A stretch of 64,000 nt of DNA from Mytilus trossulus (Eukaryota), in the NCBI RefSeq assembly GCF_036588685.1, contig NC_086381.1, positions 61,752,001-61,816,000 on the forward strand, written 5' to 3'. The position numbers and the translations under genes were made by a program. Below the pieces are notes generated by a model that was not told the origin of the DNA, ran no database searches, and saw only the letters and a program-made list of their open reading frames with translations. This document shows positions 4,928 to 51,850 of the stretch, piece after piece. Positions within the stretch are counted from its first letter, which is position 1, and the number at the start of each line of letters is the position of its first letter.

Positions 4928-6354
4928 TAAGATACGTGAATTTACATGATAAAGTTACCGTTTAAATAAATAAAAATACTGGGCATTGCCCTATAGAAAT
5001 GTAATTTAACCAAACGTATTAAAAAAAAAAGACATCTTACATAATGATAAATTATACAGTCAAACTATTAAAAGTCGCTACAACACTGTATTTCTTTCGG
5101 TTTTTTTTTCACGATTGTTTCTGAATAAAAATCTTGCATTTTGTTTCCTTAATATACTTTATCTTTATTGTAGGTCCATGTTCACCTATAATGGGTGCAA
5201 ATAAGCAAATTTTAAATATTATTATCAATTTATTTTGTTGTTATACCTTTTTTCTTGTTTATGCTATTTACCAGCAAATGCTATAGGCCTTATAATTCTT
5301 AAAAATGCATCTATCAATATAAAGTTATTGCTTTGTCCTAAGTTTTACAAAGTTTGTGGTTATACTGTCAAACATATGAATATATACATGCATTTCTTAT
5401 ATAATTAATTCCATGCATAATTATGCAACAAAGCCATTAAAGTCAGGTTACAACAAATTACCTCTTTTTGAAAGAATTAAGGTAAGATAAATTAAATATT
5501 TATCTGCGTATTAAAATTATCTTCGCATCAAAAATCTCAACAGTGTGCAATGTTTATTCTTAGAAAAAAGAATCGTCAAATAAACTAGAAATTAAGCTTA
5601 AACAAATAATATTCAAGTTAATTCTGATTATCGTTCTTAGTCCGCTGCTAATGCTAGAGTGAACAATAAATTCTATTGAAATAGTCTTCAATTACAGGTT
5701 CATTTTTGCATGATATAGTTACGAATCACATTTCTAACATCTGTATCAACCGTAAAATATATATCTAGACATGTAAAAATTAAAATCACATAAAACTCAA
5801 AACGGAAAGTCCCTTATCCAAAGGCAAAATGAAACGACAAAAAACACCAAACGAATGGACAACAACCGTCATACACCTGACTTGGTACAGACATTTTAAA
5901 ATGTAGAAAGTCGTTGATTAAATCGGGTTTTATAACGCTAAACCTCTCAATTGTATAGCAGTCGTTTCAAATTCCGTTATATTTACAACGATGCGTGAAC
6001 AAAACGGACACAATAGGTAAAATAATCAAAATATGGTTACAGCAGTCATCACTGCATTACAATCTCAAAACAAACAAACAATCACAAAAAACATCTATCA
6101 AATTAAAAAAAGCATTCGTTGTAAAATACATTAATTTTATAGTTATTTTCCTCATTATTCGTCTGTTTGGTTCTACAAACTGAATTTAATACAAGAAAGC
6201 ATTCTGACAATTATCGGTTTAGGTGTTGCTCATTGCTGAAGGTCGTGCGGTGGCCTAAAGTTGCTAACTTCTATGGTATAAGGTATCTGCTGGAGATAAA
6301 AACATATTAATTTTTACACAAGTGTACACCAACTCATCGCATGCATTATACTAT

Positions 6355-19817: not shown

Positions 19818-22598
19818 GTTTGCTACTACAACAAATGTAAACACGATGTATAAGACATTCTTAAATATCTGTCAATGCAACACTTTAAAAAAGAGCTTTA
19901 CGACTCAGTGGTTGACAAGGGAAGCATCCATCATTCTGTTGATGCTGTTTTCATGCGTACATGTATACTTATATTTTATTAAAGGAGAAAAGTAATGTTT
20001 GCATAGTTCTCTATACTATTTGTTTTTTGTAGTTTAAATATAATTAGTGCAGTATGTTCAAATTACTCAACGATTAAAATGTTTAGTCATTCAATTTCAA
20101 ATTGATAAGAAAAAAATGGAACGCCGCGACAACTTGAGGTACAGACCTTGTTGATCTGAAAGACTCACAACAATGTAACAGTTGTTGCGGCTGTTTATTC
20201 CATTGCAGGATTAAAGCAGTTCAGTTCATGTTCAGTTTGTACATGACTAATGAATTCAAGACAGATATATTGATGTTTATCGGACAAATGTCGTATATTT
20301 AATAAAAAAAGAGTTAAATTCATGTAAATAGTACAGAATCAAAAATCGAATAGGGTTGTGTTTTAATGTGGAATCGAGATGGCCAAATTCAAAAAGTATA
20401 TCAAAAGTATAATAACATAGTTCTTGATAGCAACATCTTATAAAAAGAAATTATGTCAGTTACTTTGTGTAATACAAATGAATGTTTTTTTCCTGTGAAT
20501 CAAATACAGTTCATATATATATATATAGTCATTTCGGGGCCTTTTATATAGCAGACTATGCGGTATGGGTCTTGCTCATTGATGAAGACCGTACGGTGAC
20601 TTATAGTTGTTAATTTGTGTGTCGTGCTGTCTCATTTTCAATTATACCACACCTTCTTTTTTATATTTGTTCGTAAAATGTAAAATGTTGATACTCTGAC
20701 CGAGGGCGCACATTAAATAATGTCAGTTTTATTGTATAAATCCTTGCTCTGACTCGTATGCAGTTTGCAATTTTTTGAAGTTCAAGCGCAATTATTTTAT
20801 CAACTACCAGGAAGACACATATGAAACATCATATTAAATGATGTTACGTTTTTTTTATGAACAACATTTTTCACTTTTTATCCTTTTTCATTTGATGCAT
20901 TGTCCAAAACATAAATACATCTGTCTTGAATTTATTAGTCATGTTCAAATGTACAGTGACCTTTAAACTATTATAGACGCATACACACGTTGAGTTTGTA
21001 TGTTTATGCAAGAGGAAACTTCAGAGAGTCAATAGTGAATGTTAAAAAGAGGAAACATAGAATAAGTGATGAAAATAATTCGTAATAGAAAAAAGGTCAA
21101 AGAAAACAAAAATAAGTCAAAATGACACAAAAGGTGTACTTCGTACTAATAAATAGACGTTCGTAAAAAATCAATAAGAAATAGCATACCTTTTTATTCT
21201 GTTGTTGTCACACTTAAAAGTCAAAGTACAGTCTGTATATGGAGTTGTGCTTGAAATTAGCATACATACGTGTGGACTGTATGGCCTAGCAGTATATTCA
21301 CACAATACATGTACATCTGTTGTTATAACGTAAATGAGAAGATTGCATGTATGGTGTATTGATTAAGTATAATGTTAACATATACATGTATTCCAAAGGT
21401 TACAAAACTAAATGCGCTTACGCTTGCATTTCTTTCCATAGTCAAATATGCCAGGAGTAATACAGAAAAGTTCGTTCATAGAGTAACAAGGACAAGTTTT
21501 CATGTTCTGAATGCTGCATTAAGGATACATTTACTGCGTGTGGTGCAACTTTCAAAATAATTAATTTTAGAAAGCATCAACCGAAACTTAAATGAGTTTA
21601 TTTAGCACAGATAATCTTCGTTCATATTGACATGTCTTGGTGTCTTTGTTTCAACTGTTACTTTTTGTACACGTATATACACTTCTGAAAAGCTTGTCTC
21701 AGCTAACATTTAGTAAAAGTGGGGTTCGTGTTCTTTATTCTTTAGTTTTCTATGTTGTGTCATGTGTACTATTGTTTGTCTGTTTGTCTTTTTCATTTTT
21801 AGCCATGGCGTTGTCCGTTTGTTTTAGAGTTTGACTGTCCCTTTGGTATATTTCGTCCCTCTTTTAGTTCAGTCTTTAACTGTTGGCAAGATCTGTTGGC
21901 AACTCAGGGCAACTGAGATGATCCCGGATTTTTATAGGGGCTCGTGCAGCTCACGCTTTATTTTCTATGTTGTGTTTTGTGTACTGTTGTATCTTTTTTC
22001 TCAATTTTTCGCCGTGGCATCAAATTGTCAGTTTGATTACGACTAATGATTTTTTTTTAGTATGCCTTGTGTATAAGACAATTGTAGATGTTAAGATTGA
22101 TCAAGATCATAGTTTTTGTCATTATTTTATCGTATTATATATGCTTGACATACATGTACCTGCGATACTCTGTATGAAGGTTTAAACTAAACGAACAGAG
22201 GCAAAAGATGATTGGGGCAAGGTCTTCAAAATCACATGGCAATGTGTCTGGTAATATTGGAAGCTTCTTCGTATCTATAAATATATAGACAATTGGAAGC
22301 ATCTTCGCATCTACAGTAAGTGTAAGTATATGGGTTGTCACATATCTGCAAAATTTCTAGTATCCAATTAGGAATAAATGCAAAGAGAGATATAAATACT
22401 TGTATGTTAAATAGTTCTAATAAGATATCTACTGGTACCATTTAACTTATATACAAAACGTATATGACTTTTGTATACACTGTACATTTGTACCTCTTTC
22501 GGTTTTGTAACGATTGTTTCTGTGTAAAAATCTTGCATTATGTTTCCTTAAGATACATTATCTTTGTTGTAGGTTCAAGTTCACCTAAATGTATATAT

Positions 22599-23226
22599 AT
22601 TTGAGAGCCCAGGTGGTCGTGTGGTCGTGTGGTCTAGCGGGACGGCTGCAGTGCAGGCGATTTGGTGTCACGATATCACAGTAGCATGGGTTCGAATCCC
22701 GGCGAGGGAGGAACTAAAAATTTGCGAAAGCAAATTTACAGATCTAACATTGTTGGGTTGATGTTTAGACGAGTTGTATATACATTATGTACACAGCCAT
22801 GTATCACCATCATTGATGGCGATCCGATGGATACATCTGTTGTAGGTCTGTCACTGACTCAGACATACTTATGAATATAATTATTTTCTGTGACTGTATC
22901 TTACATTAATTTGTAGGATCCTTTACTATAGATAATTTAGCTGATCTGTAACCATAACATCTTCATGCCTTATATATCATGTACTGTAGTACGCCGCTAG
23001 ATTAAAACTGACGTGGAAAGGTAACACATGGCCAGCGAAAGCTCTTTATTTGAGAGCCCAGGTGGTCGTGTGGTCTAGCGGGACGGCTGCAGTGCAGGCT
23101 ATTTGGTGTCAAGATAGCACAGTAGCATGGGTTCGAATCCCGGCGAGGGAAGAACCAAAAATTTGCAAAAGCAAATTTACAGATCTAACATTGATGGGTT
23201 GATGTTTAGACGAGTTACATATATAC
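22599..23226 (+). mobile_element. tRNA-headed partial-tandem retroelement: two ~175-bp direct repeats (22599-22782, 23049-23226) separated by ~270 bp
   Basis: Each repeat has a Pol III A-box-like tggtcgtgtgg and a perfect B box ggttcgaatcc, a stem-loop aaatttgc-gaaa-gcaaattt, and a (TA)-rich tail. Absent from copy A (~5190). Confidence 0.85.
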
Positions 23227-25892
23227 ATGTAGACAAATTTTAAATATTATTATCAATCTATTTTGTTGTTTTATCTTTTTATGCTATTTACCAGCAAATG
23301 TTATAGGCCTTATACTTCTTAAAAATGCATCTATCAATATAAAGTTATTGCTTTGTCCTAAGTTTTACAAAGTTTGTGGTTATACTGTCAAATATATGGA
23401 TATATTTGCACTTCTTATATAATTAATTCCATGCATAAGTATGCAACAAAGCCATGACAGTCAGGTTACAACAAATTACCTCTTTTTGAAAGAATTAAGG
23501 TAAAATAAATCAAATAGTAATCTTCGCATCAAAAATCTGAACAGTGTGCAATGTTTATTCTTAGAAAAAAAGAATCGTCAAATAAACGAAAAAGTAAGCT
23601 GAAATAAATACTATTCAAGTTAGTTCTTATTATCGTTCTTAGTCCGCTGCTAATGCTAGAATAAACAATAAATTCTATTGAAATATTCTTATTTTTGCAT
23701 GATATAGTTACGAATCACATTTTTAACATCCGTATCAACCGTACCATATATATTTAGACATGTAAAAATTAAAATCACAAAAAAAATGAACTCCTAGGAA
23801 ACTCAAAACGGAAAGTCCGTTATCCAAAGGCAAAATCAAACGACAAAATCCACCAAACGAACGGACAACAACCGTCATATTCCTGACTTCGTACGGGCAT
23901 TTTTAAATGAAGAAAATGGTGGATTAAATCAGATTTGATAACGCTAAACCTCTCTCGTGTATGACAGTCGTTTCAAATTCCGTTATTTTTACGACGATGC
24001 GTGAACAAAACAGACACAATAGGTAAACTAGTCAAAATATGGTTACAGCAGTCATCACTGCGTTACAATCTCGAAACAAACAAACAAGCACAAAAAGCAT
24101 CTATCAAACTAAAGAAAGCATTTGTTGTAAAATACACTAATTTTATAGTTATTTTCCTCATTATTCGTCTGTTTGGTTCTACAAACTGAATTGAATACAA
24201 GAAAGCATTCTGACAATTATCGGTTAAGGTGTTGCTCATTGCTGAAGGTCGTGCGGTGGCCTAAAGTTGCTAACTTCTATGGTATAAGGTATCTACTGTC
24301 GAAAAAAACATACCATCTTTTACACAAGTCTACACCAACTCAGCGCATGCATTATACTATAATAGTTCGCTCACTGAGGTACAAATTAACTATTGGCTAA
24401 TTTTGATTTAATCAAACCTTTTTTGCCACTATTTAATATTTTTCAATCGAACACAAGACATATTTCTTTTAACAATACGGTTATAGTACAAGCATAATTA
24501 TGATGCCCTCTGATCTGGTATGAATTGTCGTTAAGTTCGTAAAATGAGTTGCAAGACAGACACAAACAATAGAGAAAAGGTTTATACATGAAGTTTGTGT
24601 TGTTCAGGTTTTAGGTTTTAGTTTTATATGGAAACTTTGTTTATTTCATCTTCATGTAATGTTTACACTGTTGTCTTAAAAGTTGTACGATCTTCAACTT
24701 ATTTGTTGCATTGCCCCCTTGGTGCATGTCCATTGGTAAATTAATGAACTTAATCATTTTGAAACTTCATTATATTAGTTATATTCGTGTTTCGTGTCCC
24801 CTTGTAACTGAATGTTTTCCTTTTTCAATGAATTTAGCCTCACCGAGTCTTAAGTTTCAATATTGTTTTCATGTTTGACATTCCGTGTCTCGTCCTTTTT
24901 ACTTGAGGTCATTTCGATGTATTGCTCTCGCCTAAATTTCCATTATGCATAAATTATGCAAATTAGTTTGGGGTTTTCAACAGATCTATAACAATTATAG
25001 ATCCGCTGTCATTACAAGTGAAAAAAAATGCATTTTCTATACCTGCAATTCCGTTTTCCGTTCATACGATGTTTCAAAAAAATATGGAATCATTTCAGTT
25101 GTTGGTTAAGTACTGAAAATTTGACTGAATTATCTTTAATTAAATACGGGTCTATATGTTTCATTGGATTGTTAAGAAAGAGGTCAAGGGCTCTTGTTCA
25201 TTCCTAAATGTAACGTACAATCAAAACCACTACACAGGTCACACAGGTTATACATATGTAGTGCCAAATGATAACCTGTAATATAAAAAAACAGACTTAC
25301 AACAACAGATGGAAGTTATTAACGACCTTGACCTTGTACCGTCAGTTGACAAACTTAACCGACTCCCCTCACCAATGGACCTGCAATTTATTTCACATGT
25401 TTTCGAAATATTGAAGACAATAATAATAATAATAATAATAATTCTTAATTTAACCAAGGTAACACATTAAACAAGATCATTTTTCGCAATGTTTCCTAAA
25501 AAATGATAAATGTCAAAGTAACATAGAGCTGTGTGTTCTTGTTCGTATAATGACTATTTAATGTCATGTTTGTCTGTGTTGACCCCCTATTTTGGGATTG
25601 CATCAGAATTATAGTCATATCGTATCGCATGAGCATGACACATATCAACTGAGCAATTATGGTTGGGACTTAGTTTTAAGAAATGATGTCAAAGTAACAT
25701 TATGAAAATATTTTTGTAAGCTGAAATATATATTTATTTTTTACATGTTTATGTCTTGTAAGATATTTTATTTTTGTCCCGTTTTTCAACATTTGCGTTT
25801 GGAAAGTTGAAATGTTTTAACTGAATGGTTAATTTAAATTAATTTAGAAAATTGTTAAAATTTAATCAATAAAGGAAAGCATTGCCCAGTTA

Positions 25893-42544: not shown

Positions 42545-43935
42545 ATATTACAATTTTCCTTATTTTTTGCATTTTTTTACTGAATTGTTTTAAAAAGAGT
42601 AAAAAAGATACCAAAAATTGTACTTTCATTAATTTTATGCCCCTCCTACGATAGTGCCTCCGTTCGTCTGTCCGTCCGTCCGTCTGTCCCGCTTCAGGTT
42701 AAAGTTTTTGGTCAAGGTAGTTTTTGATGAAGATGAAGTCCAATCAACTTGAAACTTAGTATCATGTGCCCTATGATATGTTTTTTTTCTAATTTAAATG
42801 CCTTATTAGAGTTTTGACCCCAATTTTACGGTTCACTGAACATAGAAAATGATAGTGCAAATTTCAGGTTAAAGTTTTTGGTCAAGGTAGTTTTTGATAA
42901 AGTAGAAGTTTAATCAACTTGAAACTTAGTGTACATGTTCCCTTTGATAACATCATTATAATTTTAATGCCGAATTAGAGAATTTATTCCAATTTCACGG
43001 TCCACTAAACATAGAAACTGATAGTGCGAGTGGGGCATCCGTGTACTGTGGAAACATTCTTGTTTTAAACCAACATAGTACTAGACTTTCATATCAGAAG
43101 TAAGTCATAAATGTTGTTTTCCTCTGGTGATGGATAATTGAAAACGGTTAACAACTGGCTTTTCTTAAATTTTCTCAATTTTTCTTATTTTAGCATTTTT
43201 TTACCTTATTTTTTTTTAAATCAAAAAGATACCAAAAATTTCATTTCCATCATTTTTCACACCAAACTAGTACTAGACTTGCATAAAGGTAGTTTATTCA
43301 TAAGTGTTGTTTTCCTCTGGTGATGGATAATTGAAAACGGTCAGAAAACGGCTTTTCTCAAATTTTCTCAATTTTCCCTATTTTAGCATTTTTTCACCTT
43401 ATTTCTTGAAAAAAATCAAAAAGATACCAAAACTTTTATTCTCATTATTTTTTACACCAACATAAAACAAAACTTCCATATAGGTAGTTAAGTCATAAAG
43501 GCTGTTTTTCTCCAATGATTGATCATTGAAAACGGTTAGAAACTGGCATTTCTTAATTTTCCTTATTTTAGCATTTTTTACCTTATTTTTTGAAAAAAAT
43601 CAAAAAGATACCAACAATTTTATTTTCATTATTTTTTACACCAACATAGTTCTAAACTTCCATATAGGTAGTTTAGTCATAAGGGCTGTTTTTCTCTAAT
43701 GATGGATCATTGAAAACGGTTAGAAACTGGCATTTCTCAATTTTCTCAATTTTCCTTATTTTAGCATTTTTTTACCTTATTTTTTTTAAAAAATCAAAAA
43801 GATACCAAAAATTTTATTTTCATTATTTTTTACACCAACATAGTACTAGACTTCCATATAGGTAGTTTTGTCATAAGTATTGTTTTTCTCCGATGACGGA
43901 TAATTGAAAACAGTAAGAAACTGGCTTTTCCTCCA
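42545..43935. repeat. ~190-bp tandem satellite-like array (~5.5 units) near the right end of the Kolobok-like element
   Basis: accaacatagtactagact anchor at 43069, 43261, 43456, 43640 and 43834. First unit interrupted by a HINE. Confidence 0.9.
42633..43063 (+). mobile_element. HINE-like non-autonomous Helentron nested in the satellite
   Basis: 5' ttttatgcccc, (GTCC)n microsatellite, two ~170-bp internal repeats (ttcaggttaaagtttttggtcaaggtag), ggggcat inverted motif, 3' cattcttg-TT. Inserted in a T run. Confidence 0.85.
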
Positions 43936-50980: not shown

Positions 50981-51780
50981 TTATCCAAACAGTTTGAATG
51001 CGTCAAACCAACTACCTTTTACCAAATTGAATAGACGTGGTGTTTCAAAATAACAAAATAAAAATACGTTTTGATCATCATCTAAAACATTTTCAATTAA
51101 CAATGACCGGAACTTTTTGTTATAAAGGTGGTACAATTCTAATACAGCCGATTGATGTCCGCCACAAAAGCCTCCAGGTAATGCAGGGTCAATACTTTCC
51201 TTGTGTAATCTAATCCCATACTTTTTATACATTTCTGTGCCGTGTAGTTGTATGAACGTTACTGTTTTGTTTAAGGCAAGAAGTTTTGATGGTGTCCACC
51301 CTTGAACATTATGAAATATGTGTTCATCGCCATGACCATAACCGCCATCTATCCAAAAAAAATGAGAGGTATTGAATATGTTAACTTCAATGGCATCCTT
51401 TAAGAAAGACAGCTTATTATTCGTTAGAATGATATAGTCTACCGAAAACCCTTCTGGGTTTTGTAGCATGGTGTTATTTTCTTTAAACTCATCTGTTTCT
51501 ATAACATTGTATATAATTTGTCTGTATCTATTGAACTCAATTTTTGAAAATCGTTTCACCATAAAAACAATATTTGAATGTATCAGTTCACTATATTGTT
51601 TTCTTATTAACTTTTCTGTTGACTTTTCACAAAAAACAACAAGTTTTGCATTCAATTTTAAGATATGCAAAAAGTACTGGATATATGTCATGAACGATCT
51701 TTTCCAATTATTCCAGTTGCCTCTGCCAATGTCATAAATAGCTGTTACCAGTGTGGCAGAATTTTCATTATATCTTGTAT
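50981..51780 (-). CDS. HtrL/YibB-family (putative glycosyltransferase) protein, terminal exon carrying the entire conserved domain
   Basis: Motifs TLVTAIYDIGRGNW...RSF..Y...F, NPE...Y.....K..FL..AI..N.F.T.HFFWIDGGYGH, GGF.GG, DDDQ, W...F match the HtrL_YibB family. Polypyrimidine acceptor (tttttatatttcacttatgattttag) at 51782-51781, TAA stop, AATAAA at 50965-50960. The ORF-track start at 51823 is intronic. Confidence 0.88.
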
Positions 51781-51850
51781 CTAAAATCATAAGTGAAATA
51801 TAAAAAGATATAGACCTTAACAATAACTCATACTATTCGATGTTGTTTAC

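Follow-up and report, generated by a model that had tools for sequence, protein, structure and literature searches.

A tRNA-Headed Tandem Retroelement in Mytilus trossulus with the Probable Relic of a Hammerhead Ribozyme at Its Unit Junction

Introduction

The described systems closest to the element considered here begin with the metazoan non-LTR retrozymes, which include families of 350–390 bp in Mytilus galloprovincialis (PMC7229834). The same source describes circles of a mussel retrozyme family of about 355 nt, and it notes blocked hammerheads in viroid circles, plant circles, and some mussel circles. The SMalpha and Sjalpha repeats of Schistosoma are reported to need at least two units to propagate (PMC6765202, PMC8490949). 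With respect to Penelope-like elements (PLEs), two internal start sites of the reverse transcriptase (RT) are described as generating the Penelope tail (PMC11167929, PMC8557442), minimal hammerheads of the Penelope type are described in PMC4209133, and a CxxxxCxxC linker and a DKG motif are given for Neptune and Nematis (PMC8557442).

The DNA analyzed in this study, referred to below as the window, is a stretch of 64,000 nt from Mytilus trossulus (assembly GCF_036588685.1, contig NC_086381.1, positions 61,752,001 to 61,816,000, forward strand). An earlier note had proposed that it contains a protein-free mobile RNA, tandemly repeated and headed by a tRNA-like sequence, related to retrozymes and to Penelope-like elements, and this much is supported by the anatomy of the element, its ends, and the pattern of its RNA. 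I consider it probable, on balance, that the insertion belongs among the young copies of a tRNA-headed, non-coding tandem retroelement (unit 441 bp), likely mobilized by a Neptune-type enzyme, whose unit junction is likely a decayed hammerhead. In the literature searched (Repbase, Dfam, and the supplement of PMC7229834 lying outside that search), I found no 441-bp tRNA-headed mussel family described.

The Insertion and Its Unit

The whole insertion lies at 22592–23233 on the plus strand, TA-rich fillers on both sides included, and is absent from a paralog at about 5187–5206. In the alignment of the two loci, the match of the left flank runs to about 22591 and that of the right flank picks up at 23234, with about 12 nt of the paralog gone at the insertion site and TA runs at both edges. 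The description given in the earlier note, of an insertion missing from the duplicate locus, lacking a clean target-site duplication (TSD), and made of about 1.4 tandem copies of a unit of about 441 bp, is borne out by this alignment and by the presence of two heads 441 apart.

The first, full unit (22603–23051, plus strand) measures 449 bp, comprising the 441-bp unit of the family and a private 8-bp duplication in the head. The second, partial unit (23052–23216, plus strand) extends from the second head to the main fixed 3' end, with AGAC at 23208. Two AGAC signals in the first unit, at 22767 and 22861 (22767–22864, plus strand), are 94 nt apart and mark the fixed 3' ends of the family. None of the six reading frames of the 441-bp unit is endlessly open when read as a circle, each containing 7–10 stops, and the fold of the unit is better than that of any of 100 shuffled sequences (z = −4.8).

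Each unit was said to begin with Pol III A and B boxes, and motifs of these boxes are indeed present on the plus strand: the first head (22607–22706) has an A-box region and a B box at 22689–22699, and the second has A-box motifs at 23063–23073 and 23071–23081 and a B box at 23130–23140. They are not, however, called as tRNA by either ARAGORN or Rfam. No tRNA was reported by ARAGORN at its default settings, either for the window or for 12 loci, and at relaxed settings it gave one match in 25 loci. Directly before the second head is a run of U (23045–23051, plus strand), which reads TTTATTT in this copy, where most young copies have T7. T runs terminate transcription by Pol III, and this one would serve as a terminator just ahead of the next head.

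Several observations concern the window more generally. It contains a segmental duplication (about 0.5–9 kb against 20.5–26.5 kb, about 88–95% identity, several indels). The empty paralog at 5187–5206 is without a (TA)n run, whereas the filled site at 22592–23233 has TA fillers on both sides; in this single case the insertion itself may have added TA repeats, beyond merely targeting them. On the minus strand at 50981–51832 there is an uninterrupted frame of 283 aa with a match to Pfam HtrL_YibB (E = 4.5e-51), which is described as a bacterial family, and a tandem array of AT-rich units of about 190 bp occupies 43105–43930.

Copies, Ends, and Targets Across the Genome

Genome-wide searches covered one assembly of 1.3 Gb. 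The earlier note had allowed that the spacer might prove unique to this locus, the repeat being then two independent SINEs. The spacer recurs, however, giving 1,712 first-look candidates, and so that reading fails. The junction pattern found 5,120 exact matches, as compared to none for the reversed control, and the size of the family may therefore be put at no fewer than 5,120 junction copies, a lower bound. In an index of sequencing runs, at least 95% of the family's sampled sequence words were found under four species labels, and none of the indexed holders is on record as RNA. Insertions range from fractions of one unit to more than 14 units, long pure arrays among them. Within age classes, old copies are 82% alike, mid copies 86%, and young copies 97%, and the median number of differences between units is 3.0 inside one array versus 7.5 across arrays.

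The 3' ends are sharply placed. Among 129 distinct ends, 91 lie at unit positions 160–185 and 20 at 255–275, both sites coming after an AGAC and spaced 94 nt apart. The 5' ends, counted after 37 with inverted flanks were left out, are spread evenly over the unit without a stop at the junction; 6 of the 92 fall near it, where 4.2 are expected (p = 0.24). A surplus of 5' ends at the head (15/75) was gone once the flanks at inverted junctions were removed. TA repeats close 56 of the 92 5' flanks, and inverted partner copies often differ by the 94-nt tail, one ending at each 3' site.

Partial tandems, random 5' ends, inverted truncated partners, two fixed 3' ends, AT-rich or (TA)n targets, and the lack of a clear TSD are all features of a non-autonomous Penelope-like element. 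In particular, the two fixed 3' ends, taken together with inverted partners that differ by the tail, match the Penelope signature of two RT starts, and the AGAC signals at 22767 and 22861 would be the start sites that define such a tail. The label of SINE, part of the hybrid suggested previously, fits poorly, since insertions do not start at the head (the same 6 of 92 ends, close to the expected number), and ends of the SINE kind, with a start at the head and a LINE-type tail with TSD, were not found. The element is not a conventional SINE, and in structure it passes as a non-autonomous Penelope-like element.

A Candidate Penelope-Like Partner

A search of the genome for the GIY-YIG domain gave 149 matches, from which 30 loci and 20 longer regions were looked at. 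In these, the 441-bp family often adjoins Penelope ends at TA runs. The candidate partner has an open reading frame of 901 aa, with the RT at 423–581, a C-terminal GIY-YIG at 798–881, and both the CxxxxCxxC linker and the DKG motif, and its 3' UTR carries a minimal hammerhead. Its family has two end sites separated by 93 nt, at each of which TAGAC is followed by 3–4 nt and (TA)n. A second family, of 911 aa (RT and C-terminal GIY-YIG), has the same TAGAC, 3–4 nt, and (TA)n ends with a spacing of 89 nt, while the remaining Penelope families inspected have other kinds of ends. No TA-flanked AGAC end was found within 1.7 kb past the open reading frame in two Naiad-type loci.

BLAST found no homology between the 441-bp family and autonomous elements in 50 PLE loci, and local alignment of the family with the two partners gave p = 0.10 (901 aa) and p = 0.014 (911 aa), both uncorrected. 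Since shared sequence is limited to the ends, it is from these that I infer a Neptune-type partner; mobilization of the 441-bp element by such a Penelope-like enzyme is likely.

Other elements were encountered in the same searches. Young Naiad-type elements (L186, L187, L199) have open frames of 1,056 aa and an N-terminal GIY-YIG, and many of them stand in tandem pairs about 4.28 kb apart. Penelope families with a C-terminal endonuclease (L190, L191, L192, L196, L197) have hammerhead-like motifs with odd first boxes in their 3' UTRs. A tandem family of about 573 bp (L043:1896–2468, minus strand; also L017, L052, L058, L082) contains a canonical type I hammerhead; no A or B boxes were found in it, it has the TTTAGACNNGTT+(TA)n end of the 441-bp family, and it often adjoins that family tail to tail. 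Finally, a hammerhead tandem family of 354–356 bp (L106–L125; control L112:975–1328) gave 48 Rfam matches, 42 of them over the cut-off, and is strongly expressed from the ribozyme strand.

The Junction in This Copy and in the Living Family

The degenerate type I hammerhead at the junction (22994–23081, plus strand) is identified by homology to an old subfamily, described below. Ten base pairs of distal helix I (22994–23003/23072–23081) are retained, and proximal helix I is lost. C3 to G8 fall at 23008–23013, position 9 is T23014, helix II spans 23015–23036, and the GAAA box is at 23037–23040. Helix III, five base pairs of GCTCT/AGAGC, is at 23041–23045/23053–23057, so numbered that 16.1 is C23057, H17 is C23058, and 1.1 is 23059. 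The CTGACG and GAAA boxes, the 5-bp hairpin, and the 10-bp distal helix are thus present where they had been placed before. The cut predicted after 23059 was one base off in its numbering, as homology with the old subfamily puts the ancestral cut after 23058.

Nor are the defects in the core the decay of this one copy. Position 9 is T and position 16.1 (23057) is C in 75 of 75 young junctions, a sample biased towards copies like that in the window, and both must therefore be considered states of the family. In the first 100 matches of the junction pattern in genome order, position 9 is T in 92, and a box with A9 is present in 958 genomic copies. The full type I descriptor is passed by none of 188 mid and young junctions from the living family, which has lost U16.1, proximal helix I, and mostly A9 too. 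Rfam recognized no hammerhead or tRNA at the junction in the window, and nothing in A9 copies or old copies. Changes at A9 of the hammerhead are severe. No data on A9U in hammerheads were found in the literature. The ribozyme of this copy is predicted to be inactive.

The Old Subfamily

A search for an A box of the tRNA type exposed relatives 70–80% identical to the family, and the set was then extended. Of its 43 rows, 7 were left out as being of the mid type or deleted, and 36 old-type copies remained. They have the tRNA-type A box TGGCCGAGTGG, which is clearer than that in the window copy. The majority sequence of the 36 has every canonical base of the core and the site GUC, and beside the core it has a helix I of 4 bp. 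The individual counts, out of 36, are C3 30, U4 34, G5 32, A6 35, G8 32, A9 34, A13 34, A14 35, A15.1 34, U16.1 33, and C17 31, and in helix I A2.1/U1.1 31/29, U2.2/A1.2 33/36, and C2.3/G1.3 29/32. A bulged G follows A15.1 in 35 copies. The full type I descriptor is passed by 3 of 20,000 shuffles and by 3 of the 43 individual copies in the old set, the latter number lowered by decay and the loss of CpG.

In a comparison across subfamilies, made with 32 copies from old to young, three pairs of helix III and three of the distal helix have changed on both sides, and together the two helices have 48 two-sided cells as compared to 21.5 ± 2.9, the covariation counts here and below being inflated by kinship of the rows. 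The pairs that are broken are A15.1-U16.1, in 16 of the 32 copies, and three core-proximal pairs of helix I, in 14–18 of 32. In a tree rooted at its midpoint, with no outgroup, the old copies make up one side of a branch with support 100/99 and have long tips, and one intermediate sequence (L087) is basal among mid and young copies. A search with the downstream part of L087 matched an unrelated repeat. Both A9 and U9 occur in mid and young copies, and therefore the loss of A9 was not a single clean step. The direction from old to young is read from the age of the old copies and from their more tRNA-like A box.

The earlier proposal of a hammerhead at the junction, with the hairpin as helix III, therefore holds for the old subfamily, whose majority core is canonical, but not for a working ribozyme in this copy or among the living junctions, and the intact type I hammerhead in each unit that would be expected of a retrozyme is confined to the old majority. 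What remains at the junction is likely a hammerhead in decay, of which old relatives have kept a near-canonical form. At three loci (L242, L252, L257) an old-type junction is followed about 300–340 nt on by one of the mid type in the same orientation; the tandem is chimeric and belongs to a duplicated locus.

The original A box of young copies reads TGGTCGTGTGG, its A being gone, a consensus-like box is found 8 nt downstream (23071–23081), and the loop has turned into T7. I infer that these changes are linked.

The junction is also part of a long rod hairpin (22980–23096, plus strand), in which the last part of the spacer, repeating the tRNA-derived head imperfectly and in inverted orientation, pairs with the next head and leaves the U-run as the loop. 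The rod is more stable than any hammerhead fold by about 25 kcal/mol, and in 34 copies five of its pairs show two-sided change. Old copies too fold better as the rod, a nascent hammerhead costing 8–20 kcal/mol, and since the rod was already there, the old ribozyme could act only during transcription.

RNA of the Family

RNA reads were placed on one permuted unit. Three stranded runs with high counts, all from a single study, held 4,685, 5,934, and 3,822 reads of the family in 8.7, 8.3, and 7.3 million records (about 520–720 per million). The bias to sense is mostly about 10–100-fold by bin, and the RNA strand is that of the A and B boxes. Depth at the U-run is about 740–1,230, the RNA being continuous across it, and 642, 884, and 431 sense reads cross the permutation joint. 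No pile-up of read ends was seen along the unit in the three runs, the region of the cut included. Reads that leave at the main 3' end number 46, 80, and 62, and 8–9% of reads continue into unlike sequence. From a fourth run came only 383 reads, of which 63% run into flanks.

At position 9, A is found in 11–15% of sense reads and U in 85–89%. Reads over the junction mostly have the full genomic T7, a deletion of one nucleotide being found in 12–14% and an insertion in about 7%. The RNA runs may not come from the same species or population as the assembly, since the commonest variant on one contig (C1) is missing from the listed RNA variants. C at 23031 is found in 60–74% of sense reads, versus 652 genome matches and 12 of the first 100, an apparent enrichment that may be due to differences of species or population. 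The idea that the RNA is enriched for two changes that repair helix II was abandoned, as C at 23035 is already the genome majority.

The retrozyme family of about 355 nt served as a control in the same runs. It shows a like sense excess, reads across joints, and no ends, with a higher two-strand background, and its pattern fixes the strand reading of the runs. The RNA seen does not look like a linear monomer made by Pol III and ending at T7. In short reads a circle and a long multimer look alike, and the RNA of the family is probably one or the other, a circle or a long chain, made without a standard ribozyme. A circle would be the simplest reading of the endless pattern, and long multimers would also fit.

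Explanation and Its Rivals

According to the explanation I favor, tandem arrays would be transcribed on the A/B-box strand, probably starting from the heads, and the RNA would be kept as a covalently unbroken molecule, most likely a circle of 441 nt that is stabilized by the rod and made without canonical self-cleavage. The GIY-YIG nuclease of a Penelope element would cut AT-rich DNA, and the RT would start within the RNA just 3' of either AGAC signal. Copying over the junction through a varying number of rounds, the RT would produce insertions of 0.3 to more than 14 units, with random 5' ends and inverted partners.

A bolder version of this explanation, which I put forward tentatively and would not yet bet on, is that a retrozyme lineage passed the processing of its RNA to Pol III and the host, and that its ribozyme-free circles are copied by the Neptune RT as rolling circles. 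In such a hand-over the T7 terminator and the shifted A box would have arisen at the old cut region during the loss of the hammerhead, and the rod would bring the two termini of a monomer transcribed by Pol III together in a single hairpin loop, ready for a host ligase. If true, the subfamilies would record, as a series of fossils does, how a ribozyme was lost within one genome, and the element would show a new route to circular RNA in animals.

The rival that survives best, though I judge it unlikely, is that with the loss of the hammerhead nothing is circular, and that a linear, multimeric read-through RNA is copied by a Penelope RT from internal starts. Ordinary non-autonomous Penelope-like tandems provide the model, and in PMC11167929 hammerhead mutants of Poseidon_Ac are described as leaving insertion in vitro unaffected, unprocessed RNA being the main substrate. 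The existence of arrays of at least 14 units and the full genomic T7 in most junction reads are consistent with such an RNA. However, exits at the main 3' end amount to about 4–7% of sense depth, as compared to 58 of 163 genomic copies (36%), the RNA is strongly one-stranded with many haplotypes mixed, and its pattern is that of the control family, for which circles are published. T7 should, moreover, stop Pol III. The closeness of units within arrays also argues against this rival, although recent origin or gene conversion would have the same effect.

It is less probable still that the living family has been re-registered to a dimeric minimal hammerhead of the Penelope type (23004–23048, plus strand), with an AAAA/UUUU helix I and an AGCU palindrome, cutting after 23044, A9 copies cutting themselves and U9 copies being cut in trans. 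The register is intact in 98 genomic copies, long young arrays among them; the A9 box is widespread, in those 958 copies and in 11–15% of sense reads; and the features of minimal hammerheads described in PMC4209133 fit. The cut would leave 5'-OH and cyclic-phosphate ends suited to RtcB and would account for circles that keep the whole T7. No shuffle in 20,000 matches the minimal descriptor, a test inflated by boxes and a helix II that were inherited from the old ribozyme. Against this, the register is broken in the window copy (T9, G.G in helix II, A23048), which is not among the 10 of 188 living junctions that pass the strict descriptor; none of its nine specific pairs shows two-sided change, and one pair of helix I is broken in 17 of 31 rows. 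Furthermore, U9 prevails in 85–89% of reads, and the site is hidden by the rod, at about 25 kcal/mol. Because old copies have G at its H17, I demoted this register from true ribozyme to rival.

I find it very hard to believe that the match to a hammerhead is a coincidence within a rod formed from an inverted tRNA head, and that there was never a ribozyme. Rfam, to be sure, finds nothing, and covariation in the rod (20 two-sided cells versus 4.1 ± 3.0) exceeds that of any pair specific to catalysis. Still, the majority sequence of the old copies shows the complete set of core bases, with GUC and the 4-bp helix I in register, an arrangement matched by 3 of 20,000 shuffles, and two other tandem families and the candidate partner bear hammerheads in the same genome. 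Least credible of all is that this copy has at its junction an active variant hammerhead cutting after 23059: the boxes and hairpin are there and natural core variants with low activity are described (PMC3088659), but U9, C16.1, and A.A or A.C beside the core in helix I occur all three together, each a criterion for rejection in that source, none of the 188 living junctions passes, and no read ends pile up at the site.

The explanation preferred here, in which a continuous RNA that has lost its ribozyme is copied by a Neptune-type RT, bears on whether Penelope-type elements and their parasites need hammerheads or merely carry them. Within a single genome, an extinct subfamily whose hammerhead is near-canonical is found beside its far more abundant ribozyme-less descendants, which are still amplifying and whose RNA is plentiful and endless. 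With one candidate enzyme named and two start sites placed exactly, rolling-circle copying of animal retrozyme RNA becomes testable.

Comparison with Known Systems

The element shares with tRNA-derived SINEs a tRNA-type head with A and B boxes. Unlike them, it forms circularly permuted tandems, does not start at the head, and has no LINE-type tail with TSD.

With the Schistosoma SMalpha and Sjalpha repeats, as described in PMC6765202 and PMC8490949, it has in common a promoter of the Pol III type, a putative one in the 441-bp family, and the position of a hammerhead in tandem repeats. The SMalpha ribozyme is described there as active and canonical, whereas the living 441-bp lineage has lost its own, and the 441-bp family differs further in the T7 just before the head, in its Penelope tail ends, and in its targeting of TA.

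The resemblance to metazoan retrozymes, as they appear in PMC7229834, lies in a short non-coding unit repeated head to tail, the position of the hammerhead at the junction, abundant sense RNA, and suspected mobilization of the Penelope type. The differences are the length of 441 bp, the head derived from a tRNA, and the restriction of the canonical hammerhead to an extinct subfamily, and BLAST found no similarity between the 441-bp family and the retrozyme family of about 355 bp in the same genome. In its anatomy and in the pattern of its RNA the element behaves as a retrozyme does, and it likely derives from one, but an intact hammerhead it does not have.

Finally, the element is like non-autonomous and Neptune-type PLEs, as characterized in PMC8557442, PMC11167929, and bioRxiv 10.64898/2026.07.22.740005, in its partial tandems, its inverted 5'-truncated partners, its one-sided tail, its (TA)n bias, and its lack of a TSD. 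It departs from PLEs in that homology to the pLTR is limited to the AGAC end signal and its spacing, in that the tail measures 94 nt, as compared to the 30–40 bp described for PLEs in those sources, and in that a tRNA head replaces the pLTR.
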